From: Sulfurisphaera tokodaii str. 7 | Lineage (GTDB): Archaea; Thermoproteota; Thermoprotei_A; Sulfolobales; Sulfolobaceae | DNA: 24,000 nucleotides | Assembly: GCF_000011205.1 (NCBI RefSeq) | Contig: NC_003106.2 | Coordinates: 2,509,938-2,533,937, forward strand | Direction: 5' to 3' | Part shown: piece by piece, positions 7,901 through 15,911 of the stretch | Position numbering within the stretch: the first letter of the stretch is position 1 | Layout of the letters: the number at the start of each line of letters is the position of its first letter | The notes under the pieces: model-generated | The model's input: the letters and a program-made list of their open reading frames with translations, nothing else | Told to the model about the DNA's origin: nothing | The model's database searches: none | Translations under genes and position numbers: made by a program

Positions 7901-8905
7901 GTATGATAATAAACAAATTAAAAATTAACTACTTAAATTCAACAGTTGTAAAAAATATGTTAAAAACTAATATAGTTAATTTATATAAGAAAATCATAGA
8001 TCATAATATGAGATTTTATACATCTTGAAATTAGCAACAGAATTCCATCATAATATGCTGATAATTATGAGTATAAGTATTGTGTCGTCATTATGGTATA
8101 AATTTATTAGATAACCTTTTCTTTACATGGAGTATGAGTATTAAATTAAGGTATTATTATATGCTAAAATTTACAGAAATATAAATTATTCCAATAAAAG
8201 CATATGATTGTAATACTCTTTGGGTGACTCGTGGATTTTTAGTATTTAAACAATTGGGATACTAACTAAGTTTAGTGTTACTTGTTTATTTAAGCATCTG
8301 TATTAATTTTATATAAATATGGGCTAATCGTTAAGCAATGTAAAAAATTATTTTTATGTATATTTATTGTATTCTACTTACGTATATTCTTGGACAAACT
8401 ATTTTGTAGTTTTCCTCTTGAACAATTTATTTATAATTCATAAAGTCTAATAAACATTTTTTATCGGCCAAATTATAAAACCTATTTTATACGTTCAGTA
8501 ATATCTTTCTCTTTTTAAGTTTTTTATTTATGTAACATTTTGTTATGTTAATTTTTAAAAAGTTTTTAAGGTTCTCTTAAAGTATAAAGGCTAAGGAAGT
8601 AAAAAACCATACCAAAAGACAAATATATCATTTATATAGCTACTCTTGTTTTTAAATCTAAAGTCCCAAGCATTATTTATCATTAAACTTAAGACTTTCT
8701 TACTTAACAAGGACTCTATACTTTCTCTGAAAGTACCATTATATCTAAGTGATTATGAGATTTCTTTTTATCTCTAAAGTAATATAAATTGAAATTTTAT
8801 TATATGAATAATTTTCTTTAAAATTATGATAATCAAATCTTTAACTATTTTTAGGGCTCTCTCATCGAGCTTATTTTGTTTTACGATTTTATAAATTATT
8901 CCTCA

Positions 8906-9573
8906 TTACGAGCTTAATTGAGAATATATTTGTTTATTAAGCATAAGCATGTAAGTTACTCTTGGTACTTTAAGCTCTTTACTATTCCTGTAATCCCACT
9001 ACTTTAGAAACATATTCTTATTTCTATAAATTTTTTGAAATAACCAATCCTATATCGCAAGATACTGTTAGTTCTAAACCTGCATCAAATACATATCCGT
9101 CTAGAACATCTATTACTGGTTTAGATATCCTCTCCGAAATTGATAAATCTTCTCTTCAGTTCATCAAAACCTCTAGTGTTAGTTAAAAAACTCACTTAAA
9201 TCCCTTCTCGAGTTGAAAGCCTTACATCCTTCTACGATGGATTTCACGAACGAACAAAACTGAGTATTATAAGAGTAAAACAAATAAATTGCAAGGAGAA
9301 AATAACATAGTTCTGTAGTTCTAAGAGGTAAAACACCCTTTCGTTAGAATGTGCTGTAACGTCTCTAAAACTATCTAATAAAAAGGTCAAATCCGAGTAT
9401 TGAGGACTTGAACAAATTATTCTGGGAGCTGAATAGAGTTAGCACAATGCAAAGAAACATGGTATTATGACCACAAAGGATATATAGGGTTTACTATATA
9501 TCTAGCGTACTTTTATAACGTAAACTCGTCTTACCCAAATACTAGAAGTAAGCATCTTCATCCATATACTCAT
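8906..9573 (-). pseudogene. Possible decayed gene remnant(s) with in-frame stops and frameshifts
   Basis: On the minus strand one frame runs 9573-9244 (110 codons) interrupted only by TAG (9502-9504) and TAA (9439-9441). Further protein-like pieces lie in shifted frames: 'VKSIVEGCKAFNSRRDLSEFF', 'TRGFDELKRRFINFGEDI', 'ISKPVIDVLDGYVFDAGLELTVSCDIGLVISKNL' and 'WDYRNSKELKVPRVTYMLMLNKQIYSQLSS'. I could not assign a family. Confidence 0.25.
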
Positions 9574-9815
9574 AATCTCCTGTTAAAGAATAACCATTCT
9601 TAAAGTTTTTCTATATTAACATTTTAAGAAAAATTTAAAAATTGATAGCTTAAAAACAAATCATATTATTTCTATCTCAAATCAATTGAATAGTATATTT
9701 TATTCTAAAACAAATTATAGATATTAATTTAATTGTTTGAATTATTAAATATAATGATTTTCCGATAAGTGTTAAATGATTTTTATCTGCGATCACTTTT
9801 TAATATATAAATTAA

Positions 9816-10022
9816 CTATAATGATCTCTCGTTTTCTTTAAGATAATCTATATAACTCATAATGGCATCTCTTATTAGGTCACTCCTATTATTATAGCCC
9901 AATCTTTTGACTAAGTCATCTATTGTTTTTAAAAAATCTTCATCAAGTTTAAATGTTATTACATGTATCTCTTCCATGTCTAAAATATAAGTATTTTCAT
10001 CAAGTTTGATAGTCTTTTCCAT
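9816..10022 (-). CDS. Ribbon-helix-helix (CopG/Arc/MetJ-type) DNA-binding protein
   Basis: 'VITFKLDEDFLKTIDDLVKRLGYNNRSDLIRDAIMSYI' shows the beta-strand, helix, G-turn, helix pattern. GGGGT lies about 9 nt upstream of the ATG at 10022. An alternative start is M16 at 9977. Confidence 0.75.
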   Translation of the reverse strand: MEKTIKLDENTYILDMEEIHVITFKLDEDFLKTIDDLVKRLGYNNRSDLIRDAIMSYIDYLKENERSL

Positions 10023-10187: not shown

Positions 10188-10994
10188 TTAATCGGAATTC
10201 ATCTGCTTAGTATATTTATTCGCAGTTATTTTCATACTTAGATATTCTATAATTATATCTATATTAGGAAGTTCTATTTCCAAGGGATTTTCCAGATATT
10301 CTTTATTAAAGGGTACCGGCACTATTAGAGGGTCTCTAAAGTACTTTCTTATTTTTTCATAATTTATCTGATAATCTGATTTCACTTGGTTGATTACTAT
10401 AATTATTGGATTAAATAACTTTACTTTATCTATTATGGGAAATTTTTTCTTAAGTAAATCATTTAAGAAATCATTTATTGGTAACATCATTCTTAAAGTG
10501 TATTCTATTATATCATCTGGGGGCGTTAAAACAACTATTGCCCTATACGTAAATTCATTTGTAATCAAGATCCAATTATAAAGAAATTTTTCAAAACATT
10601 CATCTGTAAATAAAGACGGGTTATCAATCACTATATTCTCGTAACTAAAATAATATTTTTTAAATTCTTCCATAAGGTGTTTATCATCTGCTGAGAGAAA
10701 TTCGGGGCTACATCCCATATTAACTACTCTTAATGAATCAAAATCCTTCCAATAAATCCCTCTAGGAAATTTATCTTTTATTCCAAAATGGCTAGAAATT
10801 GTTGTCGATAAAGATCTATCTATTAATATTGTAGGTTGATACTTTGATAGTTCCTTAGCTATTTGGTATGAAATTGTTGATTTACCTACTCCACCCTTTA
10901 GACTAGTAACATTTACCACTCCCATATAATCTCTATTTGGTAAAGATATTGATAAATATAATATTATATTCTCTATGTGAAGATGTTTAAACAT
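10188..10994 (-). CDS. ParA/MinD-family P-loop ATPase (deviant Walker A)
   Basis: 'SLKGGVGKST' has the KGGxGK[ST] motif with the signature Lys. 'TILIDRS' is Walker A'-like and 'IVIDNPS' is Walker B-like. The likely true start is M24 (10925), which gives 'MGVVNVTSLKGG...'. Confidence 0.85.
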   Translation of the reverse strand: MFKHLHIENIILYLSISLPNRDYMGVVNVTSLKGGVGKSTISYQIAKELSKYQPTILIDRSLSTTISSHFGIKDKFPRGIYWKDFDSLRVVNMGCSPEFLSADDKHLMEEFKKYYFSYENIVIDNPSLFTDECFEKFLYNWILITNEFTYRAIVVLTPPDDIIEYTLRMMLPINDFLNDLLKKKFPIIDKVKLFNPIIIVINQVKSDYQINYEKIRKYFRDPLIVPVPFNKEYLENPLEIELPNIDIIIEYLSMKITANKYTKQMNSD

Positions 10995-11017
10995 TCTTTG
11001 AAATATTTAAATTCGTT

Positions 11018-11242
11018 TTAATTATTTTTATTCTTAGTACTGGAGACACCTATAATTATAGTACCTATTAATAAGCAGAAGTAAGAGTAATTTCCCAATA
11101 TTAATGATAATATTTGTTTATTAGAATAAAATATAGCTGATAATATTAATTCAATGATCCCTGTTAAAATAAAAGCTCTACCCACGTTTTGTAGTTTCAC
11201 TTTTATCCACCCTCTGTAAGATAAAATAGAATGAAGCAACAA
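11018..11242 (-). CDS. Small two-TM membrane protein (start uncertain)
   Basis: Two hydrophobic segments are present. A GTG at 11185 overlaps the upstream gene's TAG (GTGGGTAG) and would give a 55-aa product, 'MGRAFILTGIIELILSAIF...'. Confidence 0.4.
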   Translation of the reverse strand: MLLHSILSYRGWIKVKLQNVGRAFILTGIIELILSAIFYSNKQILSLILGNYSYFCLLIGTIIIGVSSTKNKNN

Positions 11243-11690
11243 AGATTATAGTAAGTAGTAGGGTCTCAATATTATATTTGCTTTCATCAATATTATGGTG
11301 TAAGAAATAAGAGGGAATTGGTTTGTTAATTCCCGGTCCTAAGGGTATGCTTGCCCCTATTAAGGTTGCGTTAATTCCATTACCAAGGTAATGTATAACT
11401 ATCCCGTTATATTTATCCACATAGATTACAAAATTATGCTCATGGATTATCCCCACCTCTATTCCGTCATATTGAGTAATATTATTTGATGTCATATTAT
11501 CATTAATAAGAAGAAAAGATGGATAATGTACTACATAGGATAAAGTTACATTATGCGAAATTACAGTCATATTTACAAGAATAGAAGAAGTAGAAGCCAT
11601 GTTAAGTATTGTTATTAGTAGGTAATAATGTGTGTAATTTCCAGATATTAAATAAAGTAAGGTAATATTGATAAAATCCAACTTTTTCAC
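11178..11690 (-). CDS. Sequon-rich membrane protein with a C-terminal TM anchor and basic tail
   Basis: There are seven N-x-S/T sequons in 170 aa. The C-terminal 'LLLTIIFVASFYFIL' is followed by 'QRVDKSETTKRG'. It abuts the stop of the ArnR-like gene (TAGGTGAAAAAGTTG), so the start could be GTG 11690 or TTG 11681. Confidence 0.55.
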   Translation of the reverse strand: MKKLDFINITLLYLISGNYTHYYLLITILNMASTSSILVNMTVISHNVTLSYVVHYPSFLLINDNMTSNNITQYDGIEVGIIHEHNFVIYVDKYNGIVIHYLGNGINATLIGASIPLGPGINKPIPSYFLHHNIDESKYNIETLLLTIIFVASFYFILQRVDKSETTKRG

Positions 11691-12545
11691 CTATTTAGCT
11701 GTTATATACGCGTATACACTTAATAAAGTAAAGAAAATTAATACATAAAGCCAGACTATACCTATATAGCGCATAAAAGGTACATTAAGATAATATATTA
11801 TAATAGGGGAAGTTAACGCTAAGAATATCATAATTTTTATTAAAGCAGTATCATAACGTAAGCTAAAAGTCACTTTTAATAAAAATCTTAAAAATATATT
11901 ATTCTTCATTTTTATTAAACTCGGAATTCTATATGCTAATTTTTTTCCTTCACTAGTTATGATATAACATTGTTTTGCGTGTCCAAATAAAGTTTTTTTA
12001 TTAATCTTTTTAAAAATACCTTTTTCTGCAAACAAGTCAATATAATATTTTAGTGTCTGAGTAGATATTCCTAATTCCCTTGATACTTTTTCAACTGGTA
12101 ATACATCACTGTTAATTAACGATGCTTTTAGCATTTCAATTAAATAGAAATATTGTATAGAGTTATTAAGCGGTATTTCATCTTCAATTTTAGGTAAAGT
12201 AGTATAGTGTGTAAGGTCATTTAGTTTATTTAATATCTCTTTTCCTTTTTCAGATAAATCATATATATCATATTTAATCTTAACAACTAATTCTTTATCA
12301 GTTAGTTTCCGTATAGCATCAAGTACAGCCTTTCTACTATTGTTAGTTGCTTCTGCAATTTCAGAAACAGAGGAAGGACCTTTTGATGCAATATATAATA
12401 AAATATCCCATTGGATTTTAGCTCTTCCAAAATCAACAATTGAGTCTAATTCTCTTAAGACGTCGAATATATTATGATTCATATCATCAAATAATTTATA
12501 TCTTCGTCTATTTAAATATTGATAATGATTATACAAACGTAACAA
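11691..12545 (-). CDS. arnR: ArnR-family membrane-bound transcription regulator (two wHTH domains plus two C-terminal TM helices)
   Basis: wHTH 1 is 'GPSSVSEIAEATNNSRKAVLDAIRKLTDKELV'. wHTH 2 is 'VEKVSRELGISTQTLKYYIDLFAEKGIF'. The C-terminal TMs are 'IKIMIFLALTSPIIIYYL' and 'IGIVWLYVLIFFTLLSVYAYI'. The architecture and the arl-adjacent position match ArnR/ArnR1 of S. acidocaldarius. The ATG at 12482 (M22) has a TATA-like TATTTAAATA about 31 nt upstream. Confidence 0.65.
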   Translation of the reverse strand: MLRLYNHYQYLNRRRYKLFDDMNHNIFDVLRELDSIVDFGRAKIQWDILLYIASKGPSSVSEIAEATNNSRKAVLDAIRKLTDKELVVKIKYDIYDLSEKGKEILNKLNDLTHYTTLPKIEDEIPLNNSIQYFYLIEMLKASLINSDVLPVEKVSRELGISTQTLKYYIDLFAEKGIFKKINKKTLFGHAKQCYIITSEGKKLAYRIPSLIKMKNNIFLRFLLKVTFSLRYDTALIKIMIFLALTSPIIIYYLNVPFMRYIGIVWLYVLIFFTLLSVYAYITAK

Positions 12546-12548
12546 CTA

Positions 12549-12932
12549 CTACGAATTCTTTATAATATTAATTAAATAATCAATTCCCTCATATAAATTC
12601 ATAGTTATTACTTTTGAGTTAAACTTTATAATTAAATTATTCCCATTTATTACTATAGTATTATCTTTGAGAGTATTCATTGACTGTAACTGAGTAGTAA
12701 CTATAAATTTTTTCCTTACTAACTCTTCGGCATTTTTACCATAGACCATAGAGATATATTTATAGAAAGTTTTTTCATTCTTTATATTAGGAATTCTTGA
12801 TTCTTCTATTAAATATATAGATAATAATATTACTAATAGTATGAGAATATACGTTTTTAAATCTGCAATTATGATCATTAATGTTGAGTTTATACCAACT
12901 AACATTATTTTATATAATTCTTTCACATTCAT
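12549..12932 (-). CDS. Bitopic membrane protein (N-terminal TM plus an ~80-aa soluble domain), unknown function
   Basis: A GGTGA SD overlaps the upstream stop, 6 nt before the ATG at 12932. The N-terminal hydrophobic stretch is 'TLMIIIADLKTYILILLVILLSIYLI'. Confidence 0.6.
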   Translation of the reverse strand: MNVKELYKIMLVGINSTLMIIIADLKTYILILLVILLSIYLIEESRIPNIKNEKTFYKYISMVYGKNAEELVRKKFIVTTQLQSMNTLKDNTIVINGNNLIIKFNSKVITMNLYEGIDYLINIIKNS

Positions 12933-12936
12933 TTTC

Positions 12937-14403
12937 TCACCCTAAATAAGGAACACTATTAATACTCATGTAAACTCCCCAAAGTATTAGGAATAGGATT
13001 ACTAGATATGAGATACTGAGTCTCTTTAGACTATTTACTGCATAAGCAGTTGGGATAAATAATGGCAAATCTATTACTAAATTACTTGCTGGTTGAAGCA
13101 CTATAATACCTAGCAAAGATATTACGTAGAGAGATTTTAGGATTCCATTAAGATATCTTGTCCCATATGCCGAAAGCAAATAGTAAATGAGAGCATTATT
13201 TGAACCCCAGCTTATCACAGCAATTTGATAGACTAATTGGTTAAAATTAAATAATCCTATCGGTACTGGGAAAATTCCCGCAAAGATTGCATAAAGTCCA
13301 GTTATAGTGAAAGGTATTATTGAAAATAAATATATGATTTCATATTTAGAAGGCTTAGTTTTCTTAAAAATAAACATAAATAAATAGTAGATTATAATAG
13401 CTGAGGATAACTGGGCCCAGGCATAAATATGGGATAAAAGTGCAAGAAAAGAGAGCAATATGGCTAATGCTAATCTCTTTCTCTTAATAAGGTATGAAAT
13501 AGATATAAACATTAAAGAAATTGAAAACAAATTGGCCTCTAATCCAGAATAAAGAAAGGTTATAAGCATAGGAGACACAGCAGCCAATAAAGCAGATAGG
13601 TTTGCTATTTTATTATCTATAGCCGAAGCTAGTTTATATGCAGAATATACATAAAGTAGTGAAATAAATACGAATTCGTAAAATGCTACTTGATACGGTC
13701 CGAATACGAGGGATAAAGAATAAAGCATTAGCAAATATAACGGCCTAGAATAGAAGAACCAACCATCAAAAGTGGGATGTAAAAGCCATGAATAATAATA
13801 TGTAAAGTCAACAGTTTCTGGTATTTTAGCAGGATTAATAAAGGGAATATATGGAATTAAAGCAATTAGTAATACTAAAACATAAGGCAAAAATAACGGT
13901 ATTCTAATACGTATATTACTTTTTCCGTTTAACAATGCAAATAGAATCCCAGAAAACCAAATAATAGGAATAGCTATTGGCAATCCGCTATTAAGTATTA
14001 ATAATGGGACAGAGAAATAAGAGTTAATACCGAGTAGTATCCTCAACAGTAACCACGTTATCATAGACGAATTTACTGTTATCAGGACATAAGTAATAAC
14101 TGAGCTAACCCCTTTCCTTAATTCATAAATGATCGGAATAAGGAGAAGAATAGGTGTTAATTGTAATGAATAAAAAGAGAGTAAAGATAATGGTAATAAA
14201 AATGCGTATCTCCTAGGATTATATAATACCATTAATGCAGCTGACAATATATTAAAGAACATTGAAGCTAACTTCCATTCGAAGACTGGATAATATGTTA
14301 TTCTATTTATTGTTATGTAAATACCATTTCCTAGAGAGTATGCAATAATTAAAATGAGTGCACTAATCCAAGGAATATTTGCACTTTTAGCTAATTTTAT
14401 CAT
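12937..14403 (-). CDS. Polytopic membrane protein, GT-C-fold (PMT_2/ArnT-like) glycosyltransferase candidate with an ~190-aa N-terminal TM extension
   Basis: It has about 13 hydrophobic segments and no Cys. 'ETVDFTYYYSWLLHPTFDGWFFYSRPLYLLMLYSLSLVFGP...AYKLASAI...ALLAAVSPMLI...' follows the GT39/GT83 pattern (acidic-x-x-YY loop, then PPLY, FG, sP). A GGTGA SD lies 7 nt before the ATG at 14403. Confidence 0.6.
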   Translation of the reverse strand: MIKLAKSANIPWISALILIIAYSLGNGIYITINRITYYPVFEWKLASMFFNILSAALMVLYNPRRYAFLLPLSLLSFYSLQLTPILLLIPIIYELRKGVSSVITYVLITVNSSMITWLLLRILLGINSYFSVPLLILNSGLPIAIPIIWFSGILFALLNGKSNIRIRIPLFLPYVLVLLIALIPYIPFINPAKIPETVDFTYYYSWLLHPTFDGWFFYSRPLYLLMLYSLSLVFGPYQVAFYEFVFISLLYVYSAYKLASAIDNKIANLSALLAAVSPMLITFLYSGLEANLFSISLMFISISYLIKRKRLALAILLSFLALLSHIYAWAQLSSAIIIYYLFMFIFKKTKPSKYEIIYLFSIIPFTITGLYAIFAGIFPVPIGLFNFNQLVYQIAVISWGSNNALIYYLLSAYGTRYLNGILKSLYVISLLGIIVLQPASNLVIDLPLFIPTAYAVNSLKRLSISYLVILFLILWGVYMSINSVPYLG

Positions 14404-14884
14404 ATTTTCTCACCATTTTTACTAAGAGCAACGATGTAGCAAAAGTAAATAATACGCCGGTGATAATAAATTTTGATTTCTTATTAAATATATGAATATC
14501 AGCTAGTTTATATAAATTAGGAAAAGAATCATTAGCTATTCCAGGGAAATTGGCACTTACTAAGCATGAAAGGGAATTATTATTGATTTTTTCTTTTAAT
14601 ATTAATCCATTTTTTGCAACTATTAAATTTCTGCTATTATATGCTAAAATTTTATGTCCATTCAGAGTATAATAAGTTATATTTCCTGATATATTTGAAA
14701 AAATTTGTTGTGGTTCTAAAGATACATTATAAATTAAAATTGTATGACTATTAGGATTTATTACATACATTGTAACAAATTTTAAAGTCAAATTATTAAT
14801 AAAAACATAAATTATATAAAATGTAATATTATGATCAATAACCCTATATTCTAAAAATATAGGAGTCATCAAAATTATATGCAA
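14387..14884 (-). CDS. Sequon-rich protein with a C-terminal TM anchor and basic tail
   Basis: There are seven N-x-S/T sequons. The C-terminal 'FIITGVLFTFATSLLLV' is followed by 'KMVRKYDKIS'. The ORF-track start is a TTG. The ATG at 14869 lies about 26 nt from the TATA-like CTTTTAAAGA (14891-14900, minus strand), which fits a leaderless start. Confidence 0.55.
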   Translation of the reverse strand: MHIILMTPIFLEYRVIDHNITFYIIYVFINNLTLKFVTMYVINPNSHTILIYNVSLEPQQIFSNISGNITYYTLNGHKILAYNSRNLIVAKNGLILKEKINNNSLSCLVSANFPGIANDSFPNLYKLADIHIFNKKSKFIITGVLFTFATSLLLVKMVRKYDKIS

Positions 14885-14990
14885 ATTTAGTCTTTAAAAG
14901 GATATCCGATTCTTCGTCGACTGGTAGTCGAAAGTAAGCTGAAGATTTTTAAAAACAATCGGAGCAAGATTACTTAGAAAGTGAGAAAAA
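14885..14990. promoter_or_regulatory. Divergent promoter region between the membrane-protein block and arlB
   Basis: A palindromic TATA TTTTTAAAAA (14946-14955) lies about 40 nt before the arlB ATG, with GTGAG (14981-14985) as an SD. An inverted repeat TCGAC-N5-GTCGA (14917-14931) sits upstream of the TATA. A second TATA-like TCTTTAAAAG (14891-14900) serves the minus-strand gene. Confidence 0.45.
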
Positions 14991-15911
14991 ATGGGAGCAA
15001 AAAATGCAATAAAAAAATATAATAAAATAGTAAAAAGAAAAGGACTTGCGGGTTTAGACACTGCAATAATATTAATAGCATTTATTATTACAGCATCAGT
15101 ATTAGCGTATGTTGCAATAAATATGGGATTATTTGTAACGCAGAAGGCTAAATCTACCATAAATAAGGGCGAAGAGACAGCTTCTACTGCGCTAACTTTA
15201 TCTGGTTCTGTATTATACGCAGTAAACTATCCTACTAATACTAAGAGTTACTGGATATTCTTTACAGTGTCGCCAAGCTCTGGAGTATCTAGTGTTGAAT
15301 TGTCTCCAGCTACTACAGCAATATCATTTACAGCATCTACGGAAGGTATAGCTTATTCGAATATATACAAGTATACATTATTAACTGTATCTCCATCAAC
15401 ATTAAGTGATGTTGTATACTCCAATAGCCAATATCTGAGTTTAGTAGATACTGAATCAAGCGGTGGTCAAACTTATGTGTATTATCCAAATCCATATTAT
15501 GCATTACTAGCACTTAATTACACCTTATCTCAGAAGGTAAACGATAAAATTATAAAATATTCACCATTATTCATAAATTATACGCCAATACCAACTAAGC
15601 CTTCATGGTTACAAAGTGATAATGTGTTCTCATTTACTCTTAATATCAGCGGTAAACCTGTTACCTATTGTGCATTTGTTAATCAAACATTTGCATTTAC
15701 TTATCCGGTAGCAGGTGACCCTCTAGTAGGTAGTGCAATAGCACCGGCAGGGTCTGTAATAGGTGTGATGATATTATTTGGTCCTAGTCTGGGCAGTCAT
15801 GTATTTCAATATCAAACAATAAGTATACAAATATCGCCTAATATAGGATCACCATTAACATTAAGCGAATATATATACCAGCCTGAAGGCACTGTTACCG
15901 TAATAGGATAA
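14991..15911 (+). CDS. arlB: Archaellin (major archaellum filament protein)
   Basis: The class III signal peptide and conserved N-terminus 'KRKG|LAGLDTAIILIAFIITASVLAYVAINMGLFVTQKAKSTINKGEETASTA' are present. It is the first gene of the arl operon. Confidence 0.95.
   Translation: MGAKNAIKKYNKIVKRKGLAGLDTAIILIAFIITASVLAYVAINMGLFVTQKAKSTINKGEETASTALTLSGSVLYAVNYPTNTKSYWIFFTVSPSSGVSSVELSPATTAISFTASTEGIAYSNIYKYTLLTVSPSTLSDVVYSNSQYLSLVDTESSGGQTYVYYPNPYYALLALNYTLSQKVNDKIIKYSPLFINYTPIPTKPSWLQSDNVFSFTLNISGKPVTYCAFVNQTFAFTYPVAGDPLVGSAIAPAGSVIGVMILFGPSLGSHVFQYQTISIQISPNIGSPLTLSEYIYQPEGTVTVIG

Follow-up and report, generated by a model that had tools for sequence, protein, structure and literature searches.

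What is the function of the genes that face the archaellin gene arlB in Sulfurisphaera tokodaii str. 7? The question is raised by a stretch of 24,000 nt of its genome (contig NC_003106.2, positions 2,509,938 to 2,533,937; this whole stretch is called the window hereafter and all positions follow its numbering), in which seven open reading frames (ORFs) of the minus strand, between positions 10188 and 14884, lie head-to-head with arlB. Starting from the arlB side they code for p165, the polytopic membrane protein p488, p127, the membrane-bound regulator ArnR, p170, p74 and a ParA-like ATPase (Table 1). The gene of a ribbon-helix-helix (RHH) protein, located outside these coordinates, is the eighth member of the conserved set. 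An earlier analysis made from the nucleotide sequence alone (the sequence-only reading) saw in the seven ORFs one tightly coupled block, possibly devoted to envelope glycosylation, anchoring or positioning in connection with motility. We tentatively favour an archaellum-linked glycosylation module that is co-induced with arlB and organized as two modules around ArnR, whose substrate can be named as a candidate only. What is new here is a GT-C-like family and a family of small proteins found in a strictly archaellin-linked setting.

Loci for the study of synteny were gathered by look-ups of protein identity, and a scan of contigs with an ArlX alignment gave three loci. The arlB gene is divergent from p165 followed by p488 in every p488-family locus examined. 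These loci represent nine lineages: S. tokodaii, S. islandicus (two strains), a Saccharolobus metagenome-assembled genome (MAG), Sulfolobus sp. A20, Acidianus sp. HS-5, Metallosphaera yellowstonensis together with matching metagenome contigs, Ca. Aramenus, and two further metagenomic lineages. The conservation of gene neighbourhood, which the sequence-only reading had put forward as a check of its hypothesis, is thus clear. As the arrangement is kept in nine lineages at 34-65% protein identity, it is more than a chance association. The junction between p165 and p488 is also tight in all cases, with an overlap of 4 or 17 nt or a gap of at most 13 nt.

The remainder of the set is more variable. 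All members are found together and in the same order in S. tokodaii, Saccharolobus and strain A20. In Acidianus an uninterrupted run of p165, p488, the ParA-like gene and the RHH gene shows overlaps of 4, 4 and 16 nt, and p127 is on the other strand. In Metallosphaera p488 and a ParA-like gene overlap by 4 nt while ArnR is encoded 6 kb away, with p170-p74 divergent from it. The p170 gene (with p74) adjoins the ArnR gene in seven of eight lineages, in an orientation that varies between lineages; in the remaining one (L017) p170 follows p488 and ArnR is encoded about 1.3 kb off. Two conserved modules make up the block: p165-p488-ParA-RHH, which is uninterrupted in Acidianus, and p127/ArnR-p170-p74. 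The layout of S. tokodaii and Saccharolobus looks like an arrangement in which the p127/ArnR-p170-p74 set lies between p488 and its ParA-RHH partners. The Sulfolobus acidocaldarius locus (L013) carries only Saci_1179 and the ArnR gene, followed by a protein kinase gene that we take to be arnS from its position. Six of the eight genes are lacking, and the simplest reading of the distribution is that they were lost in the S. acidocaldarius lineage. In the Ca. Aramenus sulfurataquae MAG (locus L011, 5900-8710) the p165, arnR and ParA-like genes are each fragmented in different frames, which could stem from misassembly or from decay of the genes.

The divergent position relative to arlB and the common spacer described in the sequence-only reading were confirmed, the distance being 106 nt from the start of the longest p165 ORF to the arlB initiation codon at 14991. 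The spacer contains a TATA-like box for each direction (Table 1). The block GGTTTTTAAAA in the arlB TATA region is conserved in seven genera, and the box on the p165 side is kept as CTTAAAA in 7/7 loci, including the region upstream of Saci_1179. Since the latter box is only 21-30 nt from ATG 14869, the p165 messenger would be leaderless. Between the two boxes is found a perfect palindrome, TCGACT-GGT-AGTCGA, that occurs once in the window. Its centre is 29 bp from the centre of the p165 TATA-like box and 26 bp from that of arlB. When the spacers were compared across loci, no other intergenic element was as well conserved as the palindrome from S. tokodaii to S. acidocaldarius. ArnR sites have been described as inverted repeats upstream of the arlB B recognition element (PMC10117864), and the palindrome is probably the corresponding, still putative, ArnR box. 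In S. acidocaldarius, Saci_1179 is grouped with Saci_1172-1178 in the ArnRAB iModulon (PMC8578740). The promoter geometry around a shared palindrome and this grouping of Saci_1179 make it plausible that p165-p488-p127 are co-induced with arlB. An 88-aa minus-strand ORF (14894-15160) runs antisense to the beginning of arlB and to its promoter. It has neither a homologue nor a gene call, and is most likely spurious.

The sequence-only reading described the 488-aa protein as GT-C-like. This guess has gained three independent supports, each of them weak: a fold search, Pfam matches in relatives and a UniRef label. In a word-indexed search of 5.8 billion proteins with p488 only 13 clusters were recovered, none of them from outside Sulfolobaceae. 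When 1.84 billion representatives were searched exhaustively with the profile, 10 close members were returned; about 120 more distant proteins (500-600 aa) also matched and align mainly across positions 170-485. Few of the distant relatives carry organism names; the named ones are all from Thermoproteota (Staphylothermus, Ignisphaera, "Crenarchaeota archaeon"). Invariant in the core family are the PETVD motif (E196, D199), R220, a block spanning S277-S296, H325 and D445. In the broad family (79 sequences) D199 is the sole invariant residue, and N190, Y203, R220, G287, H325 and P447 are found in at least 90% of the sequences. The AlphaFold2 (AF2) model of p488 (predicted local distance difference test score, pLDDT, 75.6; predicted template-modelling score, pTM, 0.71) is nearly all helical and hydrophobic, and its 26 helical elements fit at least 13 membrane spans. 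In a Foldseek search of the PDB with this model, ranks 1-14 were all GT-C proteins (STT3, ALG12, ArnT) and Pmt4 occupied ranks 19-20, with TM-scores of at most 0.43. Among the 79 relatives, PMT_2 (weak matches in six, best 6.7e-6) and STT3 (in two, best 3.3e-5) are the only recurrent Pfam families. One distant relative is named RgtA/B/C/D-like glycosyltransferase in UniRef, and two adjoin GT2 and GT4 genes instead of arl genes. It is thus likely but not proven that p488 belongs to the GT-C glycosyltransferase superfamily, in which it founds a narrow family that has no Pfam model.

Two further observations concern p488 and its neighbours. One metagenomic lineage (L018, 12289-13092) encodes a GT2 protein (Pfam Glycos_transf_2, 3.8e-24) in its arl-linked block, one gene from ArnR; this single case fits the supply of a sugar donor to a GT-C enzyme. 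The p488 orthologue of Metallosphaera sedula DSM 5348 is annotated as two proteins, Msed_1332 (251 aa) and Msed_1333 (214 aa), while other Metallosphaera have an intact gene (484 aa); this suggests a strain-specific pseudogene. A literature search on SSO2324-2329 and Msed_1330-1335 found nothing relevant.

The small membrane proteins p165 and p170 are, as judged from profile-profile comparison (hhalign probability 95%, E 3.4e-8 over 146 columns) and from agreeing reciprocal hidden Markov model matches, distant paralogues. Their joint family comprises 19 clusters, all from Sulfolobaceae. As the sequence-only reading had noted, both carry a C-terminal helix and numerous N-x-S/T sequons, and p74 has two hydrophobic segments. 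p127, which it called bitopic, has an N-terminal hydrophobic region. The helix of p165 and p170 is single, hydrophobic and followed by a short basic tail. Each protein has seven sequons where about 2.4 are expected (P=0.006 and 0.002), an enrichment found in no other protein of the locus. Two sequon positions of p165 are conserved in five or six of its six orthologues, and four in p170, of which N40-x-T42 and N107-x-T109 are invariant. The middle residue of the conserved sequons is variable and S alternates with T. The sequon pattern and the basic tail suggest that the domain preceding the helix, predicted with low confidence to be beta-rich in these single-pass proteins, is extracellular and N-glycosylated. 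The p74 gene directly follows p170 in seven of the eight lineages that have p170, and was not detected in L017.

In the mechanism that we tentatively favour, p488 would be a GT-C-fold glycosyltransferase that uses a sugar donor linked to a lipid phosphate on the outer side of the membrane. The catalytic acid would be D199, in a site lined by R220, H325 and D445. A hand-drawn topology (hydropathy and the positive-inside rule) can set D199, S277-S296, H325 and D445 on one face in the C-terminal two-thirds of the protein. p165 would be a translationally coupled single-pass partner of p488, probably N-glycosylated itself. Transcription of p165-p488-p127 from a leaderless promoter spaced by 26-29 bp from the palindrome would be switched on with that of arlB at starvation. 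The target would most likely be archaellin or another surface component produced simultaneously, and the modification would take place after export, be specific to some lineages and be missing in S. acidocaldarius.

Several results weigh against this mechanism. For p488, no Foldseek match in the PDB has an E value below 0.013, and neither p488 nor its close homologues match any Pfam or NCBIfam model. In searches of PDB sequences the narrow p488 profile found nothing, and the broad one found only rhodopsins and designed helices, which were set aside as noise due to transmembrane composition. The acidic motif (E196-x-x-D199) is in a loop that follows a hydrophobic helix, after about six such helices, whereas the motif of canonical GT-C enzymes is in the first loop. 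The N-terminal third of p488 creates a parity conflict in the hand-drawn topology and leaves the side of D199 ambiguous. The window encodes no sugar-donor gene. No signal peptide is visible in p165 or p170, so that the outside location of their sequon-rich domains is unexplained, and the AF2 model of these proteins (19 sequences) has a pLDDT of 49.7, too poor for a fold search. The archaellin of S. acidocaldarius shows only N-glycans (PMC11607397), deletion of the p127 homologue Saci_1179 has no reported archaella phenotype, and S. acidocaldarius swims without the genes that are missing from its locus. The module is thus dispensable for a functional archaellum, a lineage-specific accessory and not part of the core machine.

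A second point concerns the genes around ArnR. The sequence-only reading called an ArnR-type regulator, and the protein, encoded 2.5 kb from arlB, exceeds the cut-off of the NCBIfam equivalog NF041016 (459.8 bits against 400) over the full model length (1-269), starting at residue 22 of the long ORF. It contains a Pfam HTH_24 match (1.5e-11, residues 43-87) and two C-terminal hydrophobic segments within residues 232-284. Its sequence is 100% identical to that of Stok01_02400, and p488 is also encoded on contig BAABQO010000015 of GCA_039545175.1. p127 matches the 125-aa ORF found between arlB and arnR in S. acidocaldarius (L013, 17332-17709; phmmer E 2.5e-10) and is, by sequence, a homologue of Saci_1179. 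The sequence-only reading counted six genes besides arnR as undescribed; there are only five, since Saci_1179 is already in the literature as a small conserved membrane protein, and archaella were not deregulated when it was deleted (PMC4307647). The p127 family, aligned from nine lineages, has a member in every lineage examined. No Pfam or PDB relative of p127 was found with either the single sequence or the profile. In Desulfurococcus and Fervidicoccus, flaB has as neighbours a gene of the ArnR family and a small, uncharacterised one (arCOG13650, ~125 aa; PMC4858521 supplement). From the likeness of this layout to that of ArnR and p127, the pairing may predate Sulfolobales.

In our reading p127 (the Saci_1179 family) and arnR-p170-p74 would form the second module, made of ArnR-adjacent membrane proteins that may modulate ArnR. 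The idea can be carried further: p127, p170 and p74 would all be co-sensors or modulators that bind the transmembrane part of ArnR, and their glycosylation-like features would be incidental. This is compatible with a glycosyltransferase role of p488, and we consider it possible though rather unlikely. It agrees with p127 and ArnR being the only members present in every lineage, S. acidocaldarius included, with the small gene between arnR and flaB that is found even in Desulfurococcales (PMC4858521 supplement), and with p170 being encoded within about 1.3 kb of arnR wherever it is found and, in S. tokodaii, coupled to arnR by a GGTGA motif. It is at odds with the unaltered regulation of archaella after deletion of Saci_1179 (PMC4307647) and with L017, where p170 follows p488 and not ArnR.

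A non-enzymatic role has also to be weighed. p488, p165, p170 and p74 could be parts of the archaellum itself (an anchor, an extension of the stator or a passage through the S-layer) with a role like that of ArlF/ArlG, the likeness of p488 to GT-C proteins being only that of any protein with many helices. The strict linkage to arlB, the weak fold-search scores of p488 and the low-confidence prediction of p165 and p170 as beta-rich single-pass proteins like ArlF/ArlG are in line with such parts. We nevertheless regard this as unlikely: invariant polar residues (D199 in 79/79 sequences, R220 and H325 in at least 90%) are typical of a catalytic site, the distant relatives of p488 are found in glycosyltransferase clusters with no arl genes nearby, and the archaellum of S. 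acidocaldarius is complete without these genes.

How the genes are transcribed bears on the claim of the sequence-only reading that all seven form one operon. The seven minus-strand ORFs are present as it reported (Table 1). Its junctions (a 17-nt overlap, gaps of 4 and 3 nt, abutting genes, a 65-nt overlap and a 23-nt gap) are correct for the longest-ORF starts, and several of them change with starts supported by homology, as five ORFs probably begin further downstream. That of p165 is probably ATG 14869, as in public gene calls and in agreement with the conserved TATA-like box upstream of it. For ArnR, the NCBIfam model begins at residue 22 of the 284-aa ORF and homologues have 266-271 aa, which points to ATG 12482 as the probable start. 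p170 probably starts at TTG 11681, where the amino-termini of homologues (MDLVNQT, MELANVS) align; a 167-aa form is recorded for S. tokodaii. Homologues of p74 open with M-K/R-I-Y-N-L-G-R, suggesting that GTG 11200 is the probable start, and those of the ParA-like protein open two to six residues before the KGG motif, in support of ATG 10925. With these revised starts p74 overlaps p170 by 23 nt, and gaps of 66 nt (between p127 and arnR) and 92 nt (before the ParA-like gene) are opened, and in each gap an AT-rich, TATA-like stretch precedes the start by about 30 nt.

In Sulfolobales the first gene of a transcript is usually leaderless while internal genes of operons bear Shine-Dalgarno-type motifs. 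The GGTGA motif, which the sequence-only reading placed at two junctions 6-7 nt from an ATG, has in fact three copies at 4-6 nt from the start codon. They precede p488, p127 and p170 and are the only ones on the minus strand between 10.1 and 15.0 kb. Their placement, combined with the leaderless-first-gene rule, leads us to infer four transcription units: p165-p488-p127, arnR-p170-p74, the ParA-like gene and the RHH gene. Three or four units are thus more likely than the single operon that had been claimed. That the seven genes compose one operon for a single envelope-glycosylation, anchoring or positioning machine that would also signal to ArnR is very unlikely in our view. The junctions of at most 23 nt or overlapping that are obtained with longest-ORF starts, and the recurrence of all members in the same order in S. 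tokodaii, Saccharolobus and strain A20, speak for it. They are outweighed by the 66-nt and 92-nt gaps with their TATA-like stretches and by an order that is not fixed: the ParA-like gene comes directly after p488 in Acidianus and Metallosphaera, ArnR is 6 kb off and p170-p74 divergent in Metallosphaera, and p127 is on the other strand in Acidianus. A 19-nt unit (ATTCTTTGAAATATTTAA), possibly a regulator-binding site, is repeated 2.3 times at 10993-11035, from the end of p74 into the stretch that precedes the ParA-like gene.

Table 1. Genes and sequence signals of the arlB region in the S. tokodaii window. For the seven minus-strand genes of the block the fourth column gives the longest ORF; the start codons in the last column are the probable ones.
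Feature	Position	Strand	Longest ORF	Remarks
arlX, G, F, H, I, J	after arlB, up to 21300	+		ArlX 2e-99; gene order
arlB	14991-15911	+		archaellin, 306 aa; Pfam Arch_flagellin 2.9e-17
AGTGAG Shine-Dalgarno-like motif of arlB	14980-14985	+		read from sequence
TATA-like box of arlB	14946-14955	+		TTTTTAAAAA; ~41 nt before ATG; read from sequence
Palindrome	14917-14931			perfect; putative ArnR box
TATA-like box of p165	14890-14899	-		CTTTAAAA on the + strand
p165	14387-14869	-	14387-14884	160 aa from ATG 14869; longest ORF from TTG 14884
GGTGA Shine-Dalgarno of p488	14410-14414	-		6 nt before p488 ATG, within the end of p165
p488	12937-14403	-	12937-14403	polytopic membrane protein, candidate GT-C-fold glycosyltransferase
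GGTGA Shine-Dalgarno of p127	12937-12941	-		4 nt before p127 ATG; includes the p488 TGA stop
p127	12549-12932	-	12549-12932	Saci_1179 homologue; N-terminal hydrophobic region and ~80-aa domain
arnR	11691-12482	-	11691-12545	263 aa from ATG 12482; membrane-bound winged helix-turn-helix activator of arlB
GGTGA Shine-Dalgarno of p170	11687-11691	-		5 nt before TTG start; spans the arnR stop codon
p170	11178-11681	-	11178-11690	167 aa from TTG 11681; p165 paralogue
p74	11018-11200	-	11018-11242	~60 aa from GTG 11200; two hydrophobic segments
ParA-like gene	10188-10925	-	10188-10994	ParA/MinD-type P-loop ATPase, 245 aa from ATG 10925; KGGVGKS
RHH gene	9816-10022	-		ribbon-helix-helix DNA-binding protein, 68 aa; Pfam RHH_1 6.5e-11

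The assignment of the last gene of the block to ParA/MinD ATPases in the sequence-only reading stands, with a Pfam CbiA score above cut-off (34.8 bits against 25.4) and an invariant deviant Walker A motif. The residues invariant in 13 homologues are K10, G11, G12, G14, K15, D36, D101 and N179. The profile finds Cfd1, archaeal MinD, FleN and Soj in the PDB. The protein also has a weak match to the BcsQ model. Scores are below the cut-offs of the subfamilies searched (minD_arch, 18.8 bits against 201.75; ParA_partition, 24.7 against 180). As read from its sequence, the C-terminus KITANKYTKQMNSD is not amphipathic and no C-terminal membrane-targeting helix is seen. The RHH protein has a generic RHH_1 domain and scores 43.4 bits with aCcr1_fam, below the cut-off of 60. 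Its gene accompanies the block in Saccharolobus, strain A20 and Acidianus; the 117-aa gene that comes after the ParA-like gene in Metallosphaera shows no similarity to it. Further ParA/MinD-like paralogues are encoded beside the arl genes: five in Metallosphaera, three in S. islandicus, two in Sulfolobus sp. A20 and one in the S. tokodaii window (coordinates in other loci: L006, 11458-20767; L008, 15118-18973; L014, 12528-16342). In Metallosphaera one copy directly follows ArnR and another overlaps p488.

In the reading that we favour, the ParA-like ATPase and the RHH protein would regulate or localise the glycosylation machinery or the archaellum. They might instead be a partition-like or cell-cycle module that is unrelated to motility and merely syntenic with arl. 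Type Ib partition systems pair ParA with a small RHH protein, a layout that is found here; ParA paralogues are clustered nearby (five in Metallosphaera, three in Saccharolobus), and the RHH protein matches the aCcr1 family model with 43 bits. This match is nevertheless below the cut-off of 60 bits, there are no centromere-like repeat arrays nearby, the locus is chromosomal and conserved across genera (hence not a mobile element), and the 4-nt overlap of the ParA-like gene with p488 in two genera argues for a function in common with p488. An independent partition module is thus quite improbable. An origin of the whole block from a mobile element or a plasmid partition system was rejected, the block being chromosomal, syntenic across genera and devoid of repeat arrays. 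A Get3-like insertase for p165 and p170 was likewise rejected, as the Get3 matches of the ParA-like protein are weaker than those to MinD and Cfd1; Get3 needs a client-binding helical subdomain, for which the 245-aa protein has no room.

Known systems provide partial parallels. The ArnR/Saci_1179 region of S. acidocaldarius (PMC4307647, PMC10117864) is laid out in the same divergent way: opposite arlB is the gene of a small membrane protein, and arnR comes next. Its spacer aligns with that of S. tokodaii at the palindrome and at both TATA boxes. S. tokodaii differs by the presence of p165 and p488 between the promoter and the Saci_1179 homologue, and of p170, p74, the ParA-like gene and the RHH gene after arnR. 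S. acidocaldarius has instead the kinase gene after arnR, presumably arnS given its position, and a second regulator, ArnR1, encoded after arlJ.

In Pseudomonas aeruginosa group IV the GT-C enzyme TfpW, whose gene adjoins the pilin gene, glycosylates pilin with the small partner TfpX (bioRxiv 10.1101/2020.04.19.049825). The two systems have in common the gene of a polytopic protein (a GT-C enzyme in TfpW, a candidate one in p488) beside the gene of the major filament subunit, a small accessory membrane protein and a conserved acidic motif in a loop. No sequence similarity between TfpW and p488 is detectable. Moreover, tfpW is located downstream of pilA in the same operon and its product has a large periplasmic tetratricopeptide repeat domain, whereas p488 lacks a soluble domain and its gene is divergent from arlB. 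A further parallel is AglS of Haloferax volcanii, a Dol-P-mannose mannosyltransferase that attaches the last mannose, outside the cell, to a glycan which is already N-linked (PMC3871713). This archaeal membrane enzyme is distinct from AglB and works after export from a single lipid-linked sugar, and by analogy such a chemistry is plausible for p488. The AglS gene belongs to the agl cluster, unlike p488, which lies beside the archaellin gene. ATPases of the FleN/MinD type have been associated with type IV pilus loci of archaea (PMC4858521). The ParA-like protein shares the P-loop family and the deviant Walker A motif with FleN/FlhG/MinD-type ATPases (arCOG00589; MinD4/MinD2 of Haloferax; BcsQ), a match that is generic and at the level of the family. 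Its coupling to GT-C-like and RHH genes has not been described for known FleN/MinD members.

To our knowledge, nearly all that is known of crenarchaeal archaella comes from S. acidocaldarius, the species that lacks most of this gene set. An active GT-C enzyme tied to archaellin expression would make p488 a candidate for the modification of glycans after export in Sulfolobales, and could account for species differences in the glycan pattern of the filament. We know of no system for the spatial or numerical control of archaella in Crenarchaeota, for which the ParA-like/RHH pair would be a candidate. S. islandicus, which is genetically tractable, has the whole gene set. The consensus and the enzymes of archaeal O-glycosylation are still unknown (PMC11607397). 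A bolder proposal, improbable in its entirety, is that p165-p488 form an extracellular glycosyltransferase complex that is induced with arlB and modifies archaellin or the co-expressed surface after export, by O-glycosylation or by addition of a species-specific terminal sugar, and that the ParA-like/RHH pair sets the place or number of archaella or of glycosylation sites. If true, this would be the first filament-linked GT-C system and the first ParA-type spatial regulator of crenarchaeal motility.

Beyond the RHH gene, a 1.9-kb stretch (7901-9815) with 24-27% GC has no ORF longer than 48 aa. Searches for tRNAs, tandem repeats and Rfam families were negative, and none of the other loci has a similar sequence. 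The stretch is framed by the arms of an inverted repeat of 23 nt (7971-7993 and 9798-9820, 91% complementary) and might be a degenerate element or an extended spacer with a regulatory role.

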